From the IMG/VR virus record IMGVR_UViG_2703718802_000006: a stretch of DNA of 10,631 nucleotides; one strand, written 5' to 3'. Shown piece after piece: positions 2,731 to 10,631 of the stretch. This stretch comes from a virus. Lineage: Duplodnaviria > Heunggongvirae > Uroviricota > Caudoviricetes. The stretch's first letter is position 1, and every line of letters begins with the position of its first letter. A program made the position numbers and the translations under genes. The notes below the pieces were generated by a model. It had not been told where the DNA came from. It saw only the letters and a program-made list of their open reading frames with translations, and made no database searches.

Positions 2731-2856
2731 ATGTCTGCACCTGCACTGCCTGATGTCAGAACAGTATTTTGATGAATTGCCAAGGTTACAATGGCACAAA
2801 TACGGCACAGGAGGAAACGTGGTGTATTTAAATATGGGGTAACTCTTTGATTTTAA

Positions 2857-2875
2857 TGGTGCCGATAATAGGAGT
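2857..2875 (-). other. attR core: 19-nt 3'-terminal fragment of tRNA-Thr (thrW-type, ptwF-like), not a functional tRNA
   Basis: Minus strand 2875->2857 reads ACTCCTATTATCGGCACCA: the end of the T-arm, the 3' acceptor strand TATCGGC (complementary to a 5' GCCGATA), discriminator A and CCA. The match to a tRNA body stops at 2876 (C where the T-stem needs G). The CCA end faces the pao/yagP flank and the 5' side faces the integrase, as expected for the duplicated core at the attR end of a tRNA-integrated element. Confidence 0.7.
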
Positions 2876-2876
2876 G

Positions 2877-2990
2877 TAACACGCGATAAATCTTGTGTTC
2901 GGGTCTTCTTCTACGACCTTCGCAACTACCTGATTTAACGATTTTTACGCACACTGATAATCTGGCATTCATCATGCACATGATAAACGC
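2877..2990 (+). repeat. Imperfect direct repeats of a CAC-N-(T)GATAA motif in the att arm between core and int (candidate integrase arm-type sites or int promoter elements)
   Basis: cacgcGATAAa at 2880-2890, cacacTGATAAtc at 2951-2962, cacaTGATAAac at 2977-2988. The last two are 26 bp apart and lie immediately upstream of the int start. Confidence 0.3.
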
Positions 2991-3014: not shown

Positions 3015-4229
3015 ATGAAATACAAGCCGGATCAATACATCATCTCTGATAGTTACGGAGTTTATTACGTCAGGATCTCAATTCCTATATGGCTTCGTAA
3101 TGCATTTGGTGGAAGAAAAACTCTCGTCCGTAGTCTGAACACTTCCGATCTTCGTGTGGCACGTAGGAAGCGTGATGTTATAGCAGACGAGTTTCACCAC
3201 ATCAGGCAAATTGCAGAGCCACCAAAACCGGACAGCCTGCAGGACACAATCAGCTATCTAAAGAGCGTTGCTAAGTACGCAAAAGCTGCCCCGAAAGCAT
3301 CAGCGCCAATTATCTCCCAATGCCCCTCTCTGAATAAGATGTTGGAGATTTACCTCACGCATAACGCTGATCGCCTGAAAATTGGAACATTAAGCAAGAC
3401 CAGGAAAGCCGTAGAACTGTTTCTGAATTACCTGCGAAAGAAGGATGTGGAACTAAACGATATCAACCGTACCACCGTTACAGGCTGGCTTGATCATCTC
3501 CGAGAAACAAAGGCAGTCCAAACAGTGGCTAACTATCTTTCTGCAATGGCAAACATTCTCGATCTTGCCTCTTCCCGATACCAGGACGCCCCACAGCTGG
3601 AAAGTAACGTATTCAGAGGGCATAAACTCAACACAGCGCAGAGCCGCCAGAGTTACGAGGCATTCACGGACGAAGAAATTACGAAGCTCATTAGCACGTT
3701 TAACAAGTTAGGAGAGGACGAATTAAGGGATTTAAGCGCCATAGCCGCTTATAGCGGAATGCGCATCAATGAAATAGCCAGTTTGAAATCTGACAATATC
3801 CGTGAAGTTGAGGGGGTGTTATGTTTCGATGTATTGGAAGGAAAGACAGCTAACGCTTCCAGGCTAATCCCATGCCATAGTGCGATTAAAACAATGGTCC
3901 TGGAACGCTGCCAGAAGCCGCACAACGGCTTTTTATTTTACCGTGCAAGTGTGACCAAGAGAGAGGACGGCAAGCGCTCCTCATGGCACGTAAACCGCTT
4001 TGGACGGCTTAAACGCGATATTCTCCCAGGGCAAGAAAACAAGGTGTTTCACTCGTACCGCCATGCCGTGATCAGTAAGCTAAACGCCGCCGGAGTGGAT
4101 GAATCTCGTATTGCCTTGCTCGCGGGCCACTCATTTGGAGAAACTGAATCTTTCAAGACGTATTCGAAATCCGTTCCTGAGCGAATAGTGAAGGAACTAA
4201 AAGAATATATCGAATTAATCAAATATTAA
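3015..4229 (+). CDS. Tyrosine-type site-specific integrase (phage integrase family), 404 aa
   Basis: ATG at 3015 with a G-rich SD (GGGGTGG). Box I Arg context (AYSGMRINEIASL), box II HxxR (FHSYRHAVISKL), a downstream LAGHS His and a C-terminal Tyr (FKTYSKS). The N-terminus (GVYYVRISIP...GGRKTLVRSLNTSDLRVARRKRD) matches the pattern of N-terminal arm-binding domains of island/P4-type integrases. Located next to the tRNA-derived att core. Confidence 0.9.
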   Translation: MKYKPDQYIISDSYGVYYVRISIPIWLRNAFGGRKTLVRSLNTSDLRVARRKRDVIADEFHHIRQIAEPPKPDSLQDTISYLKSVAKYAKAAPKASAPIISQCPSLNKMLEIYLTHNADRLKIGTLSKTRKAVELFLNYLRKKDVELNDINRTTVTGWLDHLRETKAVQTVANYLSAMANILDLASSRYQDAPQLESNVFRGHKLNTAQSRQSYEAFTDEEITKLISTFNKLGEDELRDLSAIAAYSGMRINEIASLKSDNIREVEGVLCFDVLEGKTANASRLIPCHSAIKTMVLERCQKPHNGFLFYRASVTKREDGKRSSWHVNRFGRLKRDILPGQENKVFHSYRHAVISKLNAAGVDESRIALLAGHSFGETESFKTYSKSVPERIVKELKEYIELIKY

Positions 4230-4243
4230 AATACCTTAAATGT

Positions 4244-4270
4244 GAGGGGGAATCCCCCTCTATTTTATTT
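4244..4270 (+). terminator. Bidirectional rho-independent terminator between convergent int and the 92-aa gene
   Basis: Perfect inverted repeat GAGGGGG-aat-CCCCCTC (4244-4260) followed by TATTTTATTT. The T-tract overlaps the stop codon (4265-4267) of the convergent minus-strand gene. Confidence 0.7.
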
Positions 4271-4543
4271 ATACCATACACTTTGCATATATTGCGATGT
4301 TTCAGATGAAATATTATACCAATATGCATAATTATTTGTTGCATCTACAACTATCAATTTATCATCACTATCCATCGCTTTATGAACTATTTGCGCTGCC
4401 TGTTCAGAATTGTAATGTGAATTAACATACCAATTTGATTCTGTAACTTTGACTGCTACGCCCAATGATTTAATAGCTTCGTAAACTGCTGGATAGTTTT
4501 TAGTTTTGATCAAGTCATAGGTTACAAAAAGATTGTTAGCCAT
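4265..4543 (-). CDS. Hypothetical 92-aa protein, AT-rich; predicted alternating beta/alpha pattern loosely reminiscent of Cas2/VapD-like ferredoxin-fold small nucleases (speculative)
   Basis: ATG at 4543-4541 with GGAGAG SD 8 nt upstream; stop at 4265. N-terminus LFVTYDL followed by a helix-like segment then VAVKVTESNWYVNS resembles the beta1-alpha1-beta2 start of Cas2/VapD-type proteins. Aromatic-rich C-terminus. No confident family assignment. Confidence 0.6.
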   Translation of the reverse strand: MANNLFVTYDLIKTKNYPAVYEAIKSLGVAVKVTESNWYVNSHYNSEQAAQIVHKAMDSDDKLIVVDATNNYAYWYNISSETSQYMQSVWYK

Positions 4544-4601: not shown

Positions 4602-4730
4602 TTATTTCTTAGCTTTCTTGGTAGGGATTTTGATAGTTTCAGTTACCGTAGTGTCAGGATGTCTTTTAGCTTCAATGGGCTTAACAAACTGACCAGTTAT
4701 CGCAGAACGAACTACTGTTTTCTTAGCCAT
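4602..4730 (-). CDS. Hypothetical 42-aa basic small protein (MAKKTVVRSAITGQFVKPIEAKRHPDTTVTETIKIPTKKAKK), first gene of a two-gene cassette
   Basis: Internal ATG at 4730-4728 preceded by GAGGTG SD (5-nt spacer). The longer track ORF from 4832 adds a Cys-rich, low-complexity N-terminal extension with no SD and is unlikely. Lys-rich termini suggest nucleic-acid binding. A hairpin (4572-4591) plus U-rich tract separates it from the 92-aa gene. Confidence 0.4.
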   Translation of the reverse strand: MAKKTVVRSAITGQFVKPIEAKRHPDTTVTETIKIPTKKAKK

Positions 4731-4881: not shown

Positions 4882-6753
4882 TCACCCCCCTGTGCTGCTC
4901 TGACCGCTCAAGGCTGACAAGGTGAGCGACTGTGTAAAACTGGCTTGTGAGGCTCTCGCCTGGAAATCAATGTAATCGCTCAGCCTTGAGCTATCGCTGG
5001 CGATAGTTAGCGGAACAGACGCTTCAAGATTGAGATTGAATACAGGTGCAAGATTGTACGCTGGCGCACTATTGGTGCTGGTTAGGGATGATATAGCAGA
5101 ATCACGAAGCGCTCCCCCTTTCAGAGAATCACCATTCAGGCCGTATTGTTCTACCGCTGTCCCTGTAGGCTGATCATCTATCCCTAACCAACCTTTAACG
5201 GCATGACCTACACTACGGCTGTCCCACCCTGTCTTGTCCTGCACCCAATCGGCAGCACTGTTGGCACTTCCTGTAACAGCACCATCATACAAACTCTGTG
5301 CCGCTGGCTTATCGCTACCAGTGAACCATTGAGGGAAACGTTCTTTCAGCCCTGCATTGATATCACTCACAACACTGGAAATCTCACCCACAAACCCAGT
5401 GATTTCTTTCGAGAGATTGCCTAAGCCCTCTCCAAGCATTCCCGCCGCTTCGGTGATAATTTTGGTTTTCCTTACCAGATCGTCGCCCCCATCGGCAAAG
5501 CCTTTCATCCAGCCTGTAAACAACTGATTGTCTATTCCATTCATCAGATTACCCATAGCAACACTCAAATCGCCATACTCATAAACCTGCTTGATCATTT
5601 CGTCGTTCAGCGTCTGACCGGACTCAATGAGAGTTCTTAGCGTCTTGTTATACTCTGCACCGTTGTTCATGAACATATCGGTGTAGTGCATCAGGTCATC
5701 ACCTAAACTCTCAATCAGCGTACCAATCTGAGCCTGTGACATACCACGGCGTTGCCCTTCATTCACCGTAGCTTGAACAAAATCGAGTGGTGAATCTTGG
5801 AACTTGGAAATCTGATCCTTACTCCATCCAAATTTGTTCATTATCGACGTAATGCCACCATCCCCACCCTTCCATTCGCCATTCTTCATTTGAGCATCGT
5901 TAACAGTCATGGCGAGGCGTTCACGCACATCTTTCATGTTATCGACGGCTTTTGAGGTATTAGCTGAATCAACACCGTGTTGCTGTCCCCAGGCCACCAT
6001 CGTTTTTATGGCGTTTGGGTTGGTTTTCACACGTTCACTCATTCTCACCAGTTCGAGGTTATCATTCCCTTTGTCAATAATTCGCTGCCCCACTCCGAGG
6101 GAGCCAGCCGTTAACGCAAGGCTTCCTAATACCCCACCACCGACGATAGGAGCATTCCCGCCCTTCTGAGCCTTTAGCTTAGTGGCTGCTGCGGCATACT
6201 GGGTACGCTGTGCCTGTGTCACTTTGGCTTGCTGTGCGGCTTCTCTGCGTAACAGGGTTACACGCTCACGAATAGATGCGTTCATACGGGCACTGGTCAG
6301 ATTGCCTTTGGCAAATTCCTCTGTTTGCTGACGTATGAAACGTAACGCTTCATATTGAGATTTAAGATCAAGTCCGTATTTACCTTTAATTCCTGACACT
6401 TGTAGCCCTGCATGGCGAAGTTTAAGCTCGGCTGTCTCTTGGTGCTTCTGTAGCTGCTGCTTCGCTTTCAGATTGGCCTTTTCATCCCTGGCTTTCTGCT
6501 TCTCTGCCGCACGTTGGGCTTTCATTTCCTTCGTATCACGAGGTTTATCATTAAAACGTGCATCATCGGCTTGTTGACGAGCTTTCTGTCTGCGCTGCTT
6601 CTGAGCCTGGAAGCGAATCTTGGGATCGGCTATTTTCTGGAAGTGCTTTTGAAGGTTATCCGCTGCGGCTTTAGCCAGAGCAATGCTCTGCTTATCCACC
6701 ACGAATGTAACCGTATTGCGGATCTGACTGACCGAAATATCAAGCATCGCCAC
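4882..6753 (-). CDS. Phage tail tape-measure-like protein (about 621-623 aa): N-terminal Lys/Gln/Ala-rich coiled coil, Gly-rich hydrophobic segment, globular C-terminal part
   Basis: Track start at 6753 is a GTG; an in-frame ATG lies at 6747-6745, with an 8-nt overlap with the upstream 65-aa ORF. The coiled-coil stretch (KAQRAAEKQKARDEKANLKAKQQLQKHQ...) and the GGGVLGSLALTAGSLGVG segment are typical of tape-measure proteins. The family call is by composition and architecture only. Confidence 0.55.
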   Translation of the reverse strand: MAMLDISVSQIRNTVTFVVDKQSIALAKAAADNLQKHFQKIADPKIRFQAQKQRRQKARQQADDARFNDKPRDTKEMKAQRAAEKQKARDEKANLKAKQQLQKHQETAELKLRHAGLQVSGIKGKYGLDLKSQYEALRFIRQQTEEFAKGNLTSARMNASIRERVTLLRREAAQQAKVTQAQRTQYAAAATKLKAQKGGNAPIVGGGVLGSLALTAGSLGVGQRIIDKGNDNLELVRMSERVKTNPNAIKTMVAWGQQHGVDSANTSKAVDNMKDVRERLAMTVNDAQMKNGEWKGGDGGITSIMNKFGWSKDQISKFQDSPLDFVQATVNEGQRRGMSQAQIGTLIESLGDDLMHYTDMFMNNGAEYNKTLRTLIESGQTLNDEMIKQVYEYGDLSVAMGNLMNGIDNQLFTGWMKGFADGGDDLVRKTKIITEAAGMLGEGLGNLSKEITGFVGEISSVVSDINAGLKERFPQWFTGSDKPAAQSLYDGAVTGSANSAADWVQDKTGWDSRSVGHAVKGWLGIDDQPTGTAVEQYGLNGDSLKGGALRDSAISSLTSTNSAPAYNLAPVFNLNLEASVPLTIASDSSRLSDYIDFQARASQASFTQSLTLSALSGQSSTGG

Positions 6754-6937
6754 CGCCTTTCTTACTCACCAGATAATTAAGTGCATCTGATACACTACGC
6801 CCACGATGTAATAACTGACGTAGATGACCGTGATCTATTTCAAGCACACGACACACTCCCGCCAGATTTAATAACTCTTCTGCTGTTTCAGCATTTACGG
6901 CGAGGTGAAGCCCCGCGCTTTTTACAATCACTTGCAT
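6740..6937 (-). CDS. Hypothetical 65-aa protein, translationally coupled to the downstream tape-measure-like gene
   Basis: ATG at 6937-6935 with AGAGGAAAG SD (about 8-nt spacer). Stop TGA at 6742-6740 overlaps the ATG (6747-6745) of the next gene in the arrangement ATGCTTGA. Confidence 0.45.
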   Translation of the reverse strand: MQVIVKSAGLHLAVNAETAEELLNLAGVCRVLEIDHGHLRQLLHRGRSVSDALNYLVSKKGGGDA

Positions 6938-6960: not shown

Positions 6961-6995
6961 ATAAAAAAGGGCGGGAACACTGGGGAGATGTTCCC
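6961..6995 (-). terminator. Rho-independent terminator downstream of the capsid gene (second of two tandem hairpins)
   Basis: On the minus strand: GGGAACA-tctccccag-TGTTCCC (6995-6973) followed by GCCC and TTTTTT (6968-6963). A second hairpin (7019-7046, stem AGCCTGA/TCAGGCT) lies just 3' of the capsid stop, with a weaker U-tract. Confidence 0.65.
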
Positions 6996-7058
6996 AACGT
7001 TCACACGCCCTATTCAAAAGCCTGATTATTGCCTGCGGGTCAGGCTCCCGCTTGCTCA

Positions 7059-8090
7059 TTAAGCAGTGATGGTGATCTTCACTTGCATACCTAACGCATG
7101 GTTCACTGGTAATGCGCTGTTTTCGTGCATAACGTGGTAAGCATCGCCGCGCTCGCTCAGGTAGCCCCAAGAGTAGTATTCAGCAGGTGCAGCATCGATC
7201 AGCGCGAAGTTGCCAGAGGCAGCGCCGTAGATGTTCTGATAAGCATTTGTGCCTTTACTGAATACCGGAACCGCCACCATGTCAGCATCATCTGGCATCT
7301 GTGCAAGGATCAGCGGATCTGTCACTTTAACAATGTCGATAGGCGCACCAGGTAGGCTAAACGTACTAACACCAGGGAGAAGCTCGTGACGCTGGTAGAA
7401 TAGGTTACGGTCGTCATATGGCGCTACATACTGGAACGCCTTAGACATACTGTCAGAGAAGCGAATCTGGCTAAATGCAGCAGGTTTAGCGAATACGATC
7501 ACTCGTTCAATCTGTCCAGCCAATCCACCTGCGGCAGCCTGAACTTTGTCTAAGATGGCATCAAAATCCTGTGCCGCTGTCGCTGTGCTCACGCTGGCTG
7601 TCATTGGCACCACACCGAACAGTTCAGCATAAGAGATCAGTAGGTCATCAGTTGCAGGCGTATAAACTTCACCTTTGAACAGAGCACGGGCCAGGTAGGA
7701 TTCACGGGTACGAAGATAGGCAATCTTATGTTTCCCTGTGTACTCGGTGTACAGGTCGGTAACGGTTTGCTCGTAGTCCGTGCCTTGCACCCTTTTCCCT
7801 TGTACGTCTACTGGTTTGAAGGTGTCTTCCCTCGCAAACCAAGGGATCTCCACCAAATATTCTTTACCATTCTGACGCGCGGTAGTGTCGTGGCTTGATG
7901 AATAACGACTCTGCGGGGTGTTAAACAGGCTGTAGTTATCATCCAGAAGCTGTGTCACCACCACTTTCGGATTCTGAACACCTACCCCGTCGAAGAGGTC
8001 GAGAGCATTCATAAGATAGTTACGTTCCGGCAGAGCCTGGAAGATTGGCGCTAAATCGACCATCTCACGCCCAATTGCGATTTTACTCAT
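7059..8090 (-). CDS. Phage major capsid protein (lambda gpE-like family), 343 aa
   Basis: ATG at 8090 with AAGGAAG SD. Size (343 aa) and sequence character fit E-type major capsid proteins, and it sits immediately downstream of a gpD-like decoration gene (D-then-E order as in lambda). Strong terminator downstream. Confidence 0.75.
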   Translation of the reverse strand: MSKIAIGREMVDLAPIFQALPERNYLMNALDLFDGVGVQNPKVVVTQLLDDNYSLFNTPQSRYSSSHDTTARQNGKEYLVEIPWFAREDTFKPVDVQGKRVQGTDYEQTVTDLYTEYTGKHKIAYLRTRESYLARALFKGEVYTPATDDLLISYAELFGVVPMTASVSTATAAQDFDAILDKVQAAAGGLAGQIERVIVFAKPAAFSQIRFSDSMSKAFQYVAPYDDRNLFYQRHELLPGVSTFSLPGAPIDIVKVTDPLILAQMPDDADMVAVPVFSKGTNAYQNIYGAASGNFALIDAAPAEYYSWGYLSERGDAYHVMHENSALPVNHALGMQVKITITA

Positions 8091-8106: not shown

Positions 8107-8466
8107 TTAAGAGGTGAAGAATGGACGGCATACGAACCCTTTGGATTCGAGCGTGGTGATAGCTGCGGCGTGATTAGCTGCGTGCAGGTTGTCGGCTTTC
8201 AGTGCTACGAAGCTGCCAACATTAGGCGCACGTAGGACATTCACGGTTTTACCGTCGCCAGCACTCACGAAATCACTTACCACCACAAAGGCATCATCGC
8301 CGGAGGTGTATAGAGCGCCATCAGCGCCGATAACATCGCCGCATTCAATATCTGCTGGCAGGTCGAAAACACGGCCTTCTACGACTGCAAAAGAATCAGT
8401 GGCGTAGCTCACTACGTCAGTGAAACTCTTACGAATTGGGAAAAGTTCGGTTAGGTCTACAATCAT
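8107..8466 (-). CDS. Putative head decoration protein (lambda gpD-like), 119 aa
   Basis: ATG at 8466 overlaps the stop of the upstream 71-aa ORF (ATGA), with AAGGAA SD. Small Gly/Ala/Val-rich beta-type protein directly preceding the major capsid gene. Assignment is by position and composition only. Confidence 0.5.
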   Translation of the reverse strand: MIVDLTELFPIRKSFTDVVSYATDSFAVVEGRVFDLPADIECGDVIGADGALYTSGDDAFVVVSDFVSAGDGKTVNVLRAPNVGSFVALKADNLHAANHAAAITTLESKGFVCRPFFTS

Positions 8467-8678
8467 TGTTGTTTGATTTCCTTGGATTTGATTGCGATCC
8501 GTTCCTGCATACTAAGTTGAGGTGTGTCCTCAGAAGGGAAATACTGGTCTACAGCTTTTTCTATTTCTTCAACGGTACATCCTGCCATTTCAGCCACTTT
8601 AGCTATTAACTCAGGATTAACTTGAATCACTTCGGATTTGTATTTTAGGATTCGGTCGCGATTGTTTATTAAGAACAT
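8463..8678 (-). CDS. Hypothetical 71-aa protein, first gene of the capsid operon; possible HTH-like segment (LIAKVAEMAGCTVEEIEKAV)
   Basis: ATG at 8678 with GAAGGAACAACACA upstream. Four-nt overlap with the decoration gene start. Function unknown. Confidence 0.5.
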   Translation of the reverse strand: MFLINNRDRILKYKSEVIQVNPELIAKVAEMAGCTVEEIEKAVDQYFPSEDTPQLSMQERIAIKSKEIKQQ

Positions 8679-8747
8679 TGTGTTGTTCCTTCGCGTTATA
8701 ACTGCGTTTATCCTTCCATTAATAACGGAAGTGTTACATGCAGATTG

Positions 8748-8771
8748 TTAAAAAGGGGCGATTAAGCCCCT
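8748..8771 (-). terminator. Rho-independent terminator (minus strand) at the 3' end of the ~670-bp non-coding region, just upstream of the capsid operon promoter
   Basis: Minus strand reads AGGGGC-ttaatc-GCCCCT followed by TTTT (stem 8771-8766 / 8759-8754, T-tract 8753-8750). Confidence 0.6.
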
Positions 8772-9347
8772 GGAGAATATGCCCTTGTTAGAAAGCATTC
8801 TGTTAAAATCATTTTCGTTTCGGAGGATTATGATGTTAAAGAAAGGTTTCTTGAAAAAATGAAGGGCGCAACTGTTACGAATAACAGAAGTAGGATCGCC
8901 CGTCATTGCTCCCACTTCAAAACAGAAGCCCTTCTGTCATGGCGAGAAGTGGGAATGGAATTTCTTATCACCCTGGAATAGTAATAAGAGATTGCCAGCC
9001 TGAACGTAACTACCACTGACGGCGTTTATTCAGTCTGACTGCTTATAATCCTAACGGGGTTATAAGGTTTAGAGCACGGAATATGCTCTCTGAAAGAGAA
9101 TGTGCGCGGTGATTGTTCGTTACCACCCGACACAAGTGGGAACGCCCGCGCCACCCTTTGGAACTAAACACAACAAAGGAAAACAACCAGCTTTCAGAGA
9201 GGATATTCAATGGGAGAGAGCGCCGCCTATGGGAAACGGCATTCTCAGGGAGTGCGTATTGTTATACGAGGGTGGAGTGATTCTAATACCTACCCTATAA
9301 CTTATTATGACACAAATAGCACAATATGTCAAGATATTTCGTAATAT

Positions 9348-9686
9348 TTATGTTATAGCGCATTCTTCCGCGATCTGGATGGCAAGCTCTCCGAGTTCAA
9401 CGGTGATGTGTTCCATAGCGAGGGCAAGCTCCTCCATATCATTGGCAATGCGCCACGCCTGATCCACGGTGACGGTATCCCCGTTCATCTGCACCAGGTG
9501 CTCTACAGCAGCATTCCAGTGTTCAAGGGCGGTGATTGCCTGTTCAGTGTATTGCAGCGCTTCCAGGAGCGCGGAGGGCGTTCTCTCACACCACGCCCTA
9601 TTAACAAGCCACAGGGCTGGTAGATGCCAAATATCGTGGAAATAGTTAATTAGGGTGTTCATGGTGTCCATAGTTTTATTATTCAT
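9348..9686 (-). CDS. Hypothetical 112-aa acidic, predicted helical protein (second gene of a coupled pair)
   Basis: ATG at 9686-9684 preceded by AAGGAA (7-nt spacer). Its start overlaps the stop of the upstream 127-aa gene as ATGAATAA. The 161-aa track ORF from 9833 is an out-of-frame extension into the 127-aa gene and is rejected. Confidence 0.5.
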   Translation of the reverse strand: MNNKTMDTMNTLINYFHDIWHLPALWLVNRAWCERTPSALLEALQYTEQAITALEHWNAAVEHLVQMNGDTVTVDQAWRIANDMEELALAMEHITVELGELAIQIAEECAIT

Positions 9687-10062
9687 TGTTGTTTTCCTTG
9701 TCGTCAAAGAGAATATCAAAATCTTGTATGTGGTGAGATAAGCCGTTAGTTTGGGAATACCCCACCCAGTCAACATAGTTTTCTGCGTATAGCTGCCACT
9801 TCTTAAGATTCGATGAATCAACACGGTATTCACGGCGGCGGCGTGGTTTATAGAAGACGTTATCCGAAGATGCTAAAACATCCTGCAATAGTTCAAACTC
9901 TGCCCCTACGGGCACCGTTGCAGGGTATTCTATTATTTCGGTGATCCATTCTCCTGGAATAGACTCTCGTGCGAGGTCTTGTAGAGAAGAGGTGTATTTA
10001 CGTTTGCTGGCGCGAGTGGCTTTTTCGATTCTAACAATGTTACTTCGTTCTTTTCGTCCCAT
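9679..10062 (-). CDS. Hypothetical 127-aa protein with basic N-terminus and acidic C-terminal tail
   Basis: ATG at 10062 with GAGGAA SD. N-terminus is Arg/Lys-rich (MGRKERSNIVRIEKATRASKRKY), there is an internal KPRRRREYR stretch, and the tail is acidic (FDDKENNNE). Stop TAA at 9681-9679 overlaps the next gene. Confidence 0.5.
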   Translation of the reverse strand: MGRKERSNIVRIEKATRASKRKYTSSLQDLARESIPGEWITEIIEYPATVPVGAEFELLQDVLASSDNVFYKPRRRREYRVDSSNLKKWQLYAENYVDWVGYSQTNGLSHHIQDFDILFDDKENNNE

Positions 10063-10171: not shown

Positions 10172-10456
10172 TTAGAAATTAGAGTAGATAAATTCTACAT
10201 TGTCTCGTTCGATGTGTTTCAGCGTGAATGATAGATAATGGCTTTCATCGTCGATATCGATCACACCAATGTTGCGCAGCGCACGAAGCCAGAATCTGAT
10301 CCCGTTATCACTTACACTGGATTTATCAGATAGCTCTCCGTAAGAAATTTTAGTTTTTCTGCCCTTCCAGAACCAGATAAGCGCATAATAAACGCCCTTC
10401 CCGCTATCGTTGATCTGTATCTGGTTTGTGTTGTTCAATTTTATGTATTGTATCAA
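10172..10456 (-). CDS. Hypothetical 94-aa protein, putative winged-helix-type DNA-binding regulator; TTG start
   Basis: The ORF contains no ATG or Met codon. Its first codon is TTG (10456-10454), preceded by a perfect AGGAGG SD with a 5-nt spacer. The segment ISYGELSDKSSVSDNGIRFWLRALRNIGVI resembles a recognition helix plus wing. AT-rich. Confidence 0.5.
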   Translation of the reverse strand: MIQYIKLNNTNQIQINDSGKGVYYALIWFWKGRKTKISYGELSDKSSVSDNGIRFWLRALRNIGVIDIDDESHYLSFTLKHIERDNVEFIYSNF

Positions 10457-10469
10457 TTAGTCCTCCTGA

Positions 10470-10601
10470 TTAGTTCCAGTGGCGTTGTATTGTGGCGATC
10501 CCTTTCTTCATTAGTTCAGCCGTTTGTCTTTGGGTCAATCCTTTGGATTTGTGTTCCTGTACTTCTTTACGGGTGTTGTTACCTTTAACTTTCTTTCTCA
10601 C
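10470..10601 (-). CDS. Possible 43-aa helix-turn-helix small protein (GTG start), very tentative
   Basis: Minus-strand ORF from GTG at 10601 to TAA at 10472-10470 translates to MRKKVKGNNTRKEVQEHKSKGLTQRQTAELMKKGIATIQRHWN. The segment LTQRQTAELMKKGIATIQRHW has a helix-turn-helix pattern. No good SD and a non-ATG start; below the ORF track size cut-off. Confidence 0.25.
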   Translation of the reverse strand: MRKKVKGNNTRKEVQEHKSKGLTQRQTAELMKKGIATIQRHWN

Positions 10602-10631
10602 TTTCTAGACTGGCCCCCTGAATCTCCAGAC

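Follow-up and report, generated by a model that had tools for sequence, protein, structure and literature searches.

The window analysed here, a stretch of 10,631 nucleotides held as the IMG/VR virus record IMGVR_UViG_2703718802_000006, belongs to the chromosome of Escherichia coli RM10410, which it matches at 100% and in which a paoC-paoD-yagP remnant is followed by a foreign island of lower GC content. Within the island, the integrase is encoded on the plus strand and everything else on the minus strand. The gene under study is that of a tail tape measure protein (TMP) homologue, which has a 65-aa open reading frame (ORF) and a capsid gene upstream and small ORFs and the integrase downstream (Table 1). 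Its ORF is open without a break on the minus strand (4882..6753). An earlier reading of the DNA made without database searches (the sequence-only reading) gave the product 623 aa; the ORF is real, while the length is better put at 621 aa (MLDISVSQ...), since the ATG at 6747, rather than the GTG at 6753, is the RefSeq start and allows alignment to residue 1 of phage TMPs. The tape-measure architecture proposed by that reading is borne out by composition and hydropathy. Residues 1-196 are basic (43 K+R versus 20 D+E) and contain many helix formers, residues ~197-225 are Gly-rich and hydrophobic (8 Gly within 40 residues; top 19-residue Kyte-Doolittle mean of 1.64 at residue 201), and the C-terminal part, residues 230-621, is mildly acidic and ends in a conserved ...LSGQSSTGG tail.

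Profile comparison with tape-measure families, the check that the sequence-only reading had called for, gave strong matches to PHROG 16051 ('tail length tape measure protein', E 1.4e-96) and to phi92 gp134 (PDB 21vq_V, E 5.3e-69), and the 662-aa TMP of phage anhysbys could be aligned end to end from residue 3 with 32% identity (E 2e-89). In the phi92 cryo-EM study, the 659-aa TMP gp134 was found to be trimeric, with residues 631-656 inside the baseplate of a tail of 24 tube/sheath rings; the window protein is thus homologous over its full length to TMPs that have been located experimentally, and composition and alignment both give it the helical N-terminal part, the Gly-rich segment and the hub-docking C-terminal tail of these proteins. 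Judged by sequence, the window ORF can be taken as a genuine phage tail tape-measure homologue. By tblastn, 139 phage records match it, all below 60% identity and the best at 41%, and essentially all of them are Escherichia/Klebsiella myophages of 145-152 kb from the Phapecoctavirus/Justusliebigvirus group. The family is narrow, with 83 matching clusters among 1.84 billion representatives and full-length members of 578-668 aa. RefSeq names the window protein (WP_033801634.1) 'cell envelope integrity protein TolA', a name with no NCBIfam model in support; this label is probably an artefact of the low-complexity coiled coil and hides the family from annotation-based searches.

With phi92 gp134 and anhysbys gp254, the window protein shares full-length homology, the three-part architecture and the ...LSGQS(S/N)TGG tail, whereas its genomic setting is entirely different. 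In anhysbys, the TMP gene stands in the canonical order of sheath, tube, chaperone, TMP, tube-initiator (Dit), hub and spike, and the same order is found in metagenomic phage contigs; in the window, the gene does not lie between chaperone and tube-initiator or hub genes, and follows a capsid gene on a 13.5-kb chromosomal island without sheath, tube, chaperone or hub neighbours. The sequence-only reading had pointed to this arrangement, and the comparison with related intact phages supports it. No tube, sheath, chaperone, portal or terminase families were found among the ORFs of the window or of the intact island in Pfam and PHROG searches. As also noted in that reading, only a coupled 65-aa ORF and a terminator, here a terminator-like hairpin at 6996-6972, separate the capsid and TMP genes.

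Table 1. Features of the window, with the evidence for each (L numbers denote related island loci).
Feature	Position	Strand	Evidence or remark
attL, partial copy of tRNA-Thr (thrW) 3' end	2856..2924		Marks island left end; read in window sequence
Tyrosine integrase, 404 aa, DUF6538 + Phage_integrase	3015..4229	+	Pfam and PHROG matches
92-aa protein, phrog_1090, downstream of TMP	4265..4543	-	PHROG match
42-aa conserved small basic protein, downstream of TMP	4602..4730	-	RefSeq annotation
Tail tape measure protein homologue, 621 aa	4882..6747	-	Matches to phrog_16051, anhysbys TMP and phi92 gp134
65-aa protein, coupled to TMP	6740..6937	-	8-nt overlap with TMP start (ATGCTTGA)
Terminator-like hairpin + T-run	6972..6996	-	Between capsid stop (7059) and 65-aa start
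Major capsid protein, 343 aa, HK97 fold, Phage_cap_E	7059..8090	-	Pfam 1e-13
Capsid cement/decoration protein, 119 aa, lambda gpD-like predicted fold	8107..8466	-	AlphaFold2 (AF2) model, pLDDT 77
71-aa protein, first gene of head/TMP block	8463..8678	-	Same position in relatives
Conserved 0.67-kb non-coding leader of head/TMP block	8679..9347	-	78-87% identical in L003, L005, L015, L018
112-aa conserved island protein	9348..9686	-	RefSeq and relatives
127-aa conserved island protein	9679..10062	-	63-78% identical in L003, L005, L009
94-aa conserved ORF, weak helix-turn-helix-like Pfam match	10172..10456	-	100% identical in L009
DEAD-box helicase 3' remnant	10470..10605	-	Translation matches C-terminus of the 482-aa helicase of XYEH3934

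To compare the protein region by region, ten island TMPs were set against six TMPs in phage context. Island TMPs measure 611-627 aa and phage TMPs 634-662 aa, so that the window protein is 13-41 aa shorter than the six, and the deficit falls entirely in the coiled-coil segment (129-155 residues in islands versus 183-195 in phages). Identity between islands and phages is 38-44% in the first 45 residues, 64-69% in residues 243-360 and 26-48% in the last 31 residues, compared with 10-25% in the coiled coil and the remainder; the last 31 residues of the window protein are 48% identical to those of anhysbys and keep the terminal LSGQSxTGG motif. The sequence-only reading considered roughly 620 aa too short for a functional ruler, a view that does not hold for this tail type because phage TMPs of the family have only 634-662 aa and the 24-ring tail of phi92 is built with 659 aa. 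At the textbook value of 1.5 Å per residue, the deficit of 41 residues against anhysbys would correspond to a tail about 6 nm, or 1-2 rings, shorter.

The extent of the island can be read from strain XYEH3934 (L002), where it is intact, 13.5 kb long and flanked by a tRNA-Thr repeat: the direct repeats at L002 15157-15181 and 15212-15225 have their counterpart at 28685-28723, within tRNA-Thr and 13.5 kb away. The genes run in the order integrase, 92-aa and 42-aa ORFs, TMP, 65-aa protein, capsid protein, 119-aa protein, 71-aa protein and the 0.67-kb leader, followed by the 112-, 127- and 94-aa proteins, a DEAD-box helicase, an Arc/ribbon-helix-helix-like regulator and a 1.4-kb non-coding region, and ending with a short (186-aa) tyrosine recombinase and cargo (a YecR lipoprotein and others). 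In RM10410, the helicase gene is cut at ~10605 by an IS2, annotated just past the window, and its last 45 codons remain; the replication module, short recombinase, cargo and attR of XYEH3934 are absent from this locus (L001 19998-21226).

The same core recurs well beyond these two strains. A block of ~71-aa, ~119-aa, capsid, 62-76-aa and TMP genes in that order is present in L002, L003, L005, L009 and L015-L023, and is kept even where TMP identity falls to ~30-35%. It is accompanied by the short recombinase, long non-coding regions and a variable replication module in islands of 13.5-14.3 kb in E. coli, Enterobacter, Klebsiella and Citrobacter, with the integrase kept at one island end. The islands occupy tRNA-Thr, tRNA-Leu and other chromosomal sites, the att repeat being confirmed only for tRNA-Thr; in E. 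coli, an 89% nucleotide variant lies at tRNA-Thr and another island at tRNA-Leu. Hundreds of genomes carry such islands, mostly Enterobacter hormaechei (one TMP variant is indexed in 360 data blocks), and metagenomes contain islands whose TMPs are only 30-46% identical to that of the window, while in E. coli the island is rare (12-18 of 5,426 complete genomes). The ORFs are intact in related islands, and the ratio of nonsynonymous to synonymous substitution (dN/dS) against the window copy is 0.17-0.34 in the TMP gene and lower, 0.07-0.12, in the capsid gene, indicating purifying selection.

Recombination among the islands is also evident. A single-protein scan of genome contigs gave six loci, two of them usable; the Cedecea locus proved to be an IS-truncated TMP fragment only. 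In the Citrobacter island, the flanks and the C-terminal two-thirds of the TMP are 100% identical to XYEH3934, while the capsid module is too divergent for tblastn detection; the AR_0128 island (L003) has an identical head module and a TMP of 79% identity. Within the Citrobacter TMP, residues 243-621 are 100% identical to the window and earlier residues 27-88%, and the TMPs of AR_0128 and E203449 have the opposite pattern (L003, L005 and L009 compared). Sequence comparison thus presents the TMP gene as a recombinational mosaic among islands, which is consistent with an arms race or with matching to helpers. Moreover, the metagenomic contig L021 (14,403 bp) has a 141-bp exact terminal overlap that closes it into a circle of 14,262 bp; it is 100% identical to L020, an integrated copy from another sample, and its integrase bridges both island ends, which suggests an excised or replicating form. 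Altogether, the islands point to an active, recombining family of mobile elements.

These observations bear directly on the explanation first offered for the locus, namely that a large deletion collapsed a prophage and left capsid and TMP genes side by side in a decaying remnant. Only two structural gene classes remain, an IS2 interrupts the far end of the window copy, and thrW, where the locus is found, is a classical site of prophage attachment, all of which would fit such a history. However, the capsid/small ORF/TMP unit recurs at uniform size in at least ten divergent lineages and at several att sites with TMP identity down to 30%, and its ORFs are intact and under purifying selection; no decayed pieces of further phage genes turned up in ORF, Pfam and PHROG scans, the closest phages have genomes of 145-152 kb and are only 32-41% identical, and a 14.26-kb circular form exists. 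With the island family conserved, recombining and under selection, and a circular form known from one relative, we regard a one-off collapse as ruled out for practical purposes, and grant a defective prophage only the faintest probability.

The head proteins of the island match those of phages at the level of profiles and predicted folds. When the window capsid and 119-aa proteins were compared by BLASTP with the corresponding anhysbys proteins (capsid and decoration), no significant match appeared, and relationships had to be sought with profiles and structures. The capsid profile matches the capsid of Pakpunavirus P7-1 (9zbi, 1.4e-21) and phi92 gp124 (1.7e-17), and hhalign relates it to the anhysbys capsid with a probability of 97.7% at only ~19% identity. 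The AF2 model of the 119-aa protein matches decoration proteins of PhiTE, Sf14, Bas63, YSD1, P21 SHP and lambda gpD (probability up to 1.00, TM about 0.6).

Two further genes connect islands and phages. A Dit-like tube-initiator gene, absent from the window island, lies directly 3' of the TMP gene in L022 (11870-12586) and L023 (11869-12525), and the L023 product is 70% identical to anhysbys gp253, which is by position and Pfam family the homologue of the phi92 tube-initiator gp135. In the AR_0128 island, a 65-aa ORF distinct in position from the TMP-coupled one (L003 26096-26293, phrog_4641) is 48% identical to anhysbys gp209; this gp209-like ORF is a second gene common to islands and Phapecoctavirus. 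When the islands were searched at the nucleotide level against the complete anhysbys genome, no non-coding stretch of pac/cos type proved to be shared, and similarity was confined to the TMP gene.

It might still be asked whether the TMP has been turned to another use, either in the virion, where it could be internal or ejected, or in acting on membranes or in lysis. Such a change would suit the Gly-rich hydrophobic segment, the position within a head operon and the lack of a cognate chaperone, tube or sheath. Nevertheless, no hallmark of phage TMPs has been lost, neither the first 45 residues nor the C-terminal tail, which in phi92 docks in the baseplate; the length is confined to 611-627 aa, and a tube-initiator accompanies the TMP in two lineages (with 70% identity to its phage counterpart in L023), a pairing that is sensible only for tail assembly. 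We therefore hold this explanation to be very improbable. Of the earlier suggestion that the element had repurposed the protein, the takeover by a small mobile element stands, and the unrelated role does not, as the evidence suggests that the TMP still serves in helper tails.

The reading we favour, and consider somewhat more probable than all others together, is that the TMP belongs to a small integrative island that is a satellite of phi92/phAPEC8-type (Stephanstirmvirinae-like) virulent myophages. The gene set of the island comprises one or more integrases, a small regulatory/replication module, variable defence-type cargo, the capsid module, the 65-aa protein and the TMP, with the tube-initiator in some lineages, and lacks genes for terminase, portal, tube, sheath, baseplate and lysis. 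We infer satellite behaviour from homology, synteny, selection, mosaicism, the circular form and the tube-initiators, and infer likewise the identity of the helper, induction, packaging, uptake of the TMP into tails and a benefit to the island.

Among known satellites, the PLEs of Vibrio offer the closest parallel. Every PLE has its own TMP, with 19-41% identity to that of the helper ICP1, together with a chaperone and, in some, a baseplate hub; the PLE TMP replaces that of ICP1 in PLE virions, whose tails are ~10 nm shorter, and once tmp is deleted, transduction drops by 96-99.9% (Mathur, Boyd et al., Nature 2026, PMC12987554). Like a PLE, the island is a small integrative element that appears to parasitise a large virulent myophage, with its own shorter TMP distant from that of the phage (32-41% identity) and with no tube, sheath or wedge genes. 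The Dit-like gene of L022 and L023, absent from the window island, may answer to the second central-baseplate gene that only some PLEs carry, and the diversification of the TMP resembles an arms race. Unlike PLEs, whose integrases are of the serine type, the island has tyrosine integrases, and it has its own capsid and cement proteins, whereas a PLE remodels the ICP1 capsid protein with TcaP. There is also no chaperone beside tmp, with no match to PF21822 or to any other chaperone family. Sequence kinship to PLEs is not expected.

The capsid genes call to mind other satellites. As in cf-PICIs (Alqurainy et al. 2023), an enterobacterial island of ~14 kb encodes its own HK97-fold major capsid protein, identified by Phage_cap_E and by profile matches to solved capsids, and would use helper tails. 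In contrast to cf-PICIs, which encode TerS, TerL, portal, protease and head-tail connectors, the island has no such families among its ORFs (Pfam, PHROGs) or in the precomputed Pfam matches of its relatives, and it is without AlpA or a primase-replicase module. Putative tmp genes have been noted in some cf-PICIs (Nature 2026, Extended Data Fig. 10, PMC12987554). EPIP satellites of Mycolicibacterium are reported to encode a major capsid protein and a TMP, as the island does, and to alter tail length (bioRxiv 2025, PMC12822802); they belong to a siphophage system of actinobacteria, have TerS, a scaffold, head-tail adaptors and an integrase of the serine type, and make tails longer than those of the helper. 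Homology to them is not expected. P4-like elements are also enterobacterial integrative satellites of 11-14 kb with a small capsid and a decoration protein, but P4 uses the helper capsid with Sid, Psu and Delta and has no TMP, and no psu, sid, delta, alpA or alpha-primase families were found among the island ORFs. By analogy, then, the island would come closest to a PLE in its tail genes, with a partial likeness to cf-PICIs through its own capsid protein.

On the satellite reading, infection by the helper phage would cause the island to excise, replicate and express its head/TMP operon. The island capsid and cement proteins might then build, on the helper portal, a small shell for ~14 kb, into which the helper terminase would package the island genome. 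The island TMP, whose N-terminal 45 residues, residues 243-360 and hub-docking C-terminus resemble those of the helper, would enter a tail built with the helper's chaperone, hub, tube and sheath, and the outcome would be a chimeric tail of the kind demonstrated experimentally for the PLEs of ICP1, here ~6 nm shorter than the helper's; meanwhile, the island TMP may interfere with helper tail assembly. The fuller proposal, that this is an undescribed satellite family of Stephanstirmvirinae-type myophages in which the island gives the capsid shell (capsid and cement proteins) and the tail core (TMP, in some cases the tube-initiator), the helper gives portal, terminase, tube, sheath, baseplate and lysis functions, and both head and tail are chimeric, a sharing of tasks without known precedent, is advanced tentatively, at slightly less than even chances.

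Several points weigh against a satellite of this kind. The window copy, cut by IS2, is probably immobile, and the L021 circle could stem from a tandem duplication rather than excision. Matches in IMG/VR are only integrated copies within longer contigs, so that they do not speak for packaging. Neither a terminase small subunit nor a portal, scaffold or protease can be recognised in the island, and its divergent capsid protein (~19% identical to the helper type) would therefore have to form shells with a portal and scaffold of foreign origin, for which there is to our knowledge no precedent. Pfam and PHROG searches found no tail assembly chaperone in the island, whereas PLEs encode one. Finally, no known phage TMP is more than 41% identical, and phi92/phAPEC8-type phages are thus candidate helpers.

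This last point leads to the idea that the helper is another, unsampled and possibly temperate phage lineage carrying this type of TMP and Dit. The best phage TMP match reaches only 41%, the island capsid is slightly closer to that of Pakpunavirus P7-1 than to that of phi92, and the islands are commonest in Enterobacter, while the matching phages in the collection are mostly Escherichia/Klebsiella phages. Against this, the 139 matching phage records are essentially all of the ~145-152 kb group, the L023 tube-initiator is 70% identical to a Phapecoctavirus protein, and PLE proteins are similarly distant from those of ICP1 (19-41%). A different helper is given a slim chance.

Another way of explaining the gene would be interference alone, in which the TMP, and perhaps the capsid protein, acts as a dominant-negative decoy that poisons tail or head assembly of infecting Stephanstirmvirinae phages and protects the host population with no transduction. 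Tail assembly is already a target of mobile-element defences (Tai, PLE11 Rta), the islands carry other defence-type cargo (TIR, SduA_C, SieB) and no packaging genes, and the TMP segments in contact with the helper are kept while the remainder diverges fast. A pure decoy would nevertheless need neither a co-conserved cement protein, nor a capsid protein at dN/dS 0.07-0.12, nor a size of 13.5-14.3 kb, and integrase, att sites and a circular form would be superfluous to it. Because interference and transduction coexist in PLEs, a decoy effect is more likely an addition than the sole function; as sole function we deem it unlikely, if the least unlikely of the alternatives to a satellite of phi92/phAPEC8-type phages.

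The first demonstration that satellites encode tape measures came in 2025-2026, from Vibrio PLEs. If the island is a satellite, the phenomenon would extend to clinically important Enterobacteriaceae and to phi92/phAPEC8-type phages, which are common in therapeutic cocktails; it would provide a second, genetically tractable E. coli system for chimeric tail assembly and a new division of virion genes, with a foreign capsid shell on the helper portal. Strains bearing the island may resist phi92/phAPEC8-type phages or divert their output. A satellite-encoded TMP is itself already known from PLEs; the island family is apparently undescribed so far, as no description of it, nor of any Phapecoctavirus or phi92 satellite, was found in the literature, and it is missed by current tools such as SatelliteFinder and, under the 'TolA' label, by RefSeq.

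Among the smaller genes of the head/TMP block is the 65-aa ORF. Its 8-nt overlap with the TMP start indicates translational coupling, and the protein is found in all ten related island loci examined (with orthologues in L005, L009, L015, L019, L020, L022 and L023), although it has only 18 close homologues. Its AF2 model consists of a beta-hairpin and three helices (pLDDT 87), with no significant PDB fold match, chaperone-like folds included; there was no Pfam match and only a weak PHROG match, and hhalign found no homology to the small ORF 5' of phage TMPs. A role as chaperone or as a frameshift 'T' extension was thus left unsupported by the Pfam, PHROG, fold and hhalign comparisons. The 71-aa protein has no Pfam or PHROG family match. 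In the leader, for which there is no Rfam family, a sigma-70-like near-consensus promoter lies on the minus strand at 9332-9304 (TTGACA-17-CATAAT with extended TG; scan 11/12), and an Rfam search of the island found no RNA family but the tRNA.

Downstream of the TMP, the 92-aa protein is 66% identical in L003 and 100% identical over the 70 residues present in L009, and L020/L021 have a gene of 92 aa at the matching position, judged by position and size only. The 42-aa protein, which is without a family assignment, is 98-100% identical in L003 and L009, islands that are otherwise diverged, and 79% identical in L005. At the position of the 94-aa ORF, L015, L018, L020 and L023 have a gene of 92-95 aa, again by position and size only.

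Further features were noted in related islands. Beside the short recombinase is a cargo slot in which defence-type genes vary (L015 1030-2175; L019 655-1668; L005 21906-22394; L020 2373-2729), with a TIR-domain protein, SduA_C/Shedu, a SieB-family protein and Rap1a in different islands, a hot-spot pattern typical of phage satellites; Dam also occurs among the island cargo. A fim-like invertible switch, formed by the 186-aa recombinase and a nearby 14-nt inverted repeat, was looked for and gained no support, 18 of 18 E. coli genomes being collinear. In Enterobacter intestinihominis (L010, L011, L013, L014), one genome has apparently two diverged TMP copies, 88-97% identical to the query; because the assembly breaks inside the TMP gene, two islands in one cell are suggested. 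The 1.4-kb non-coding region upstream of the 186-aa tyrosine recombinase (L002 24523-25893) includes a block at ~25332-25520 that is 88-90% identical in some divergent islands (L015, L023) and holds the palindromes ATCATTGTccACAATGA, TTGTTAtaatgTAACAA and GATTAGcattCTAATC; because of these several palindromes, it is probably an operator/promoter control region of the island.

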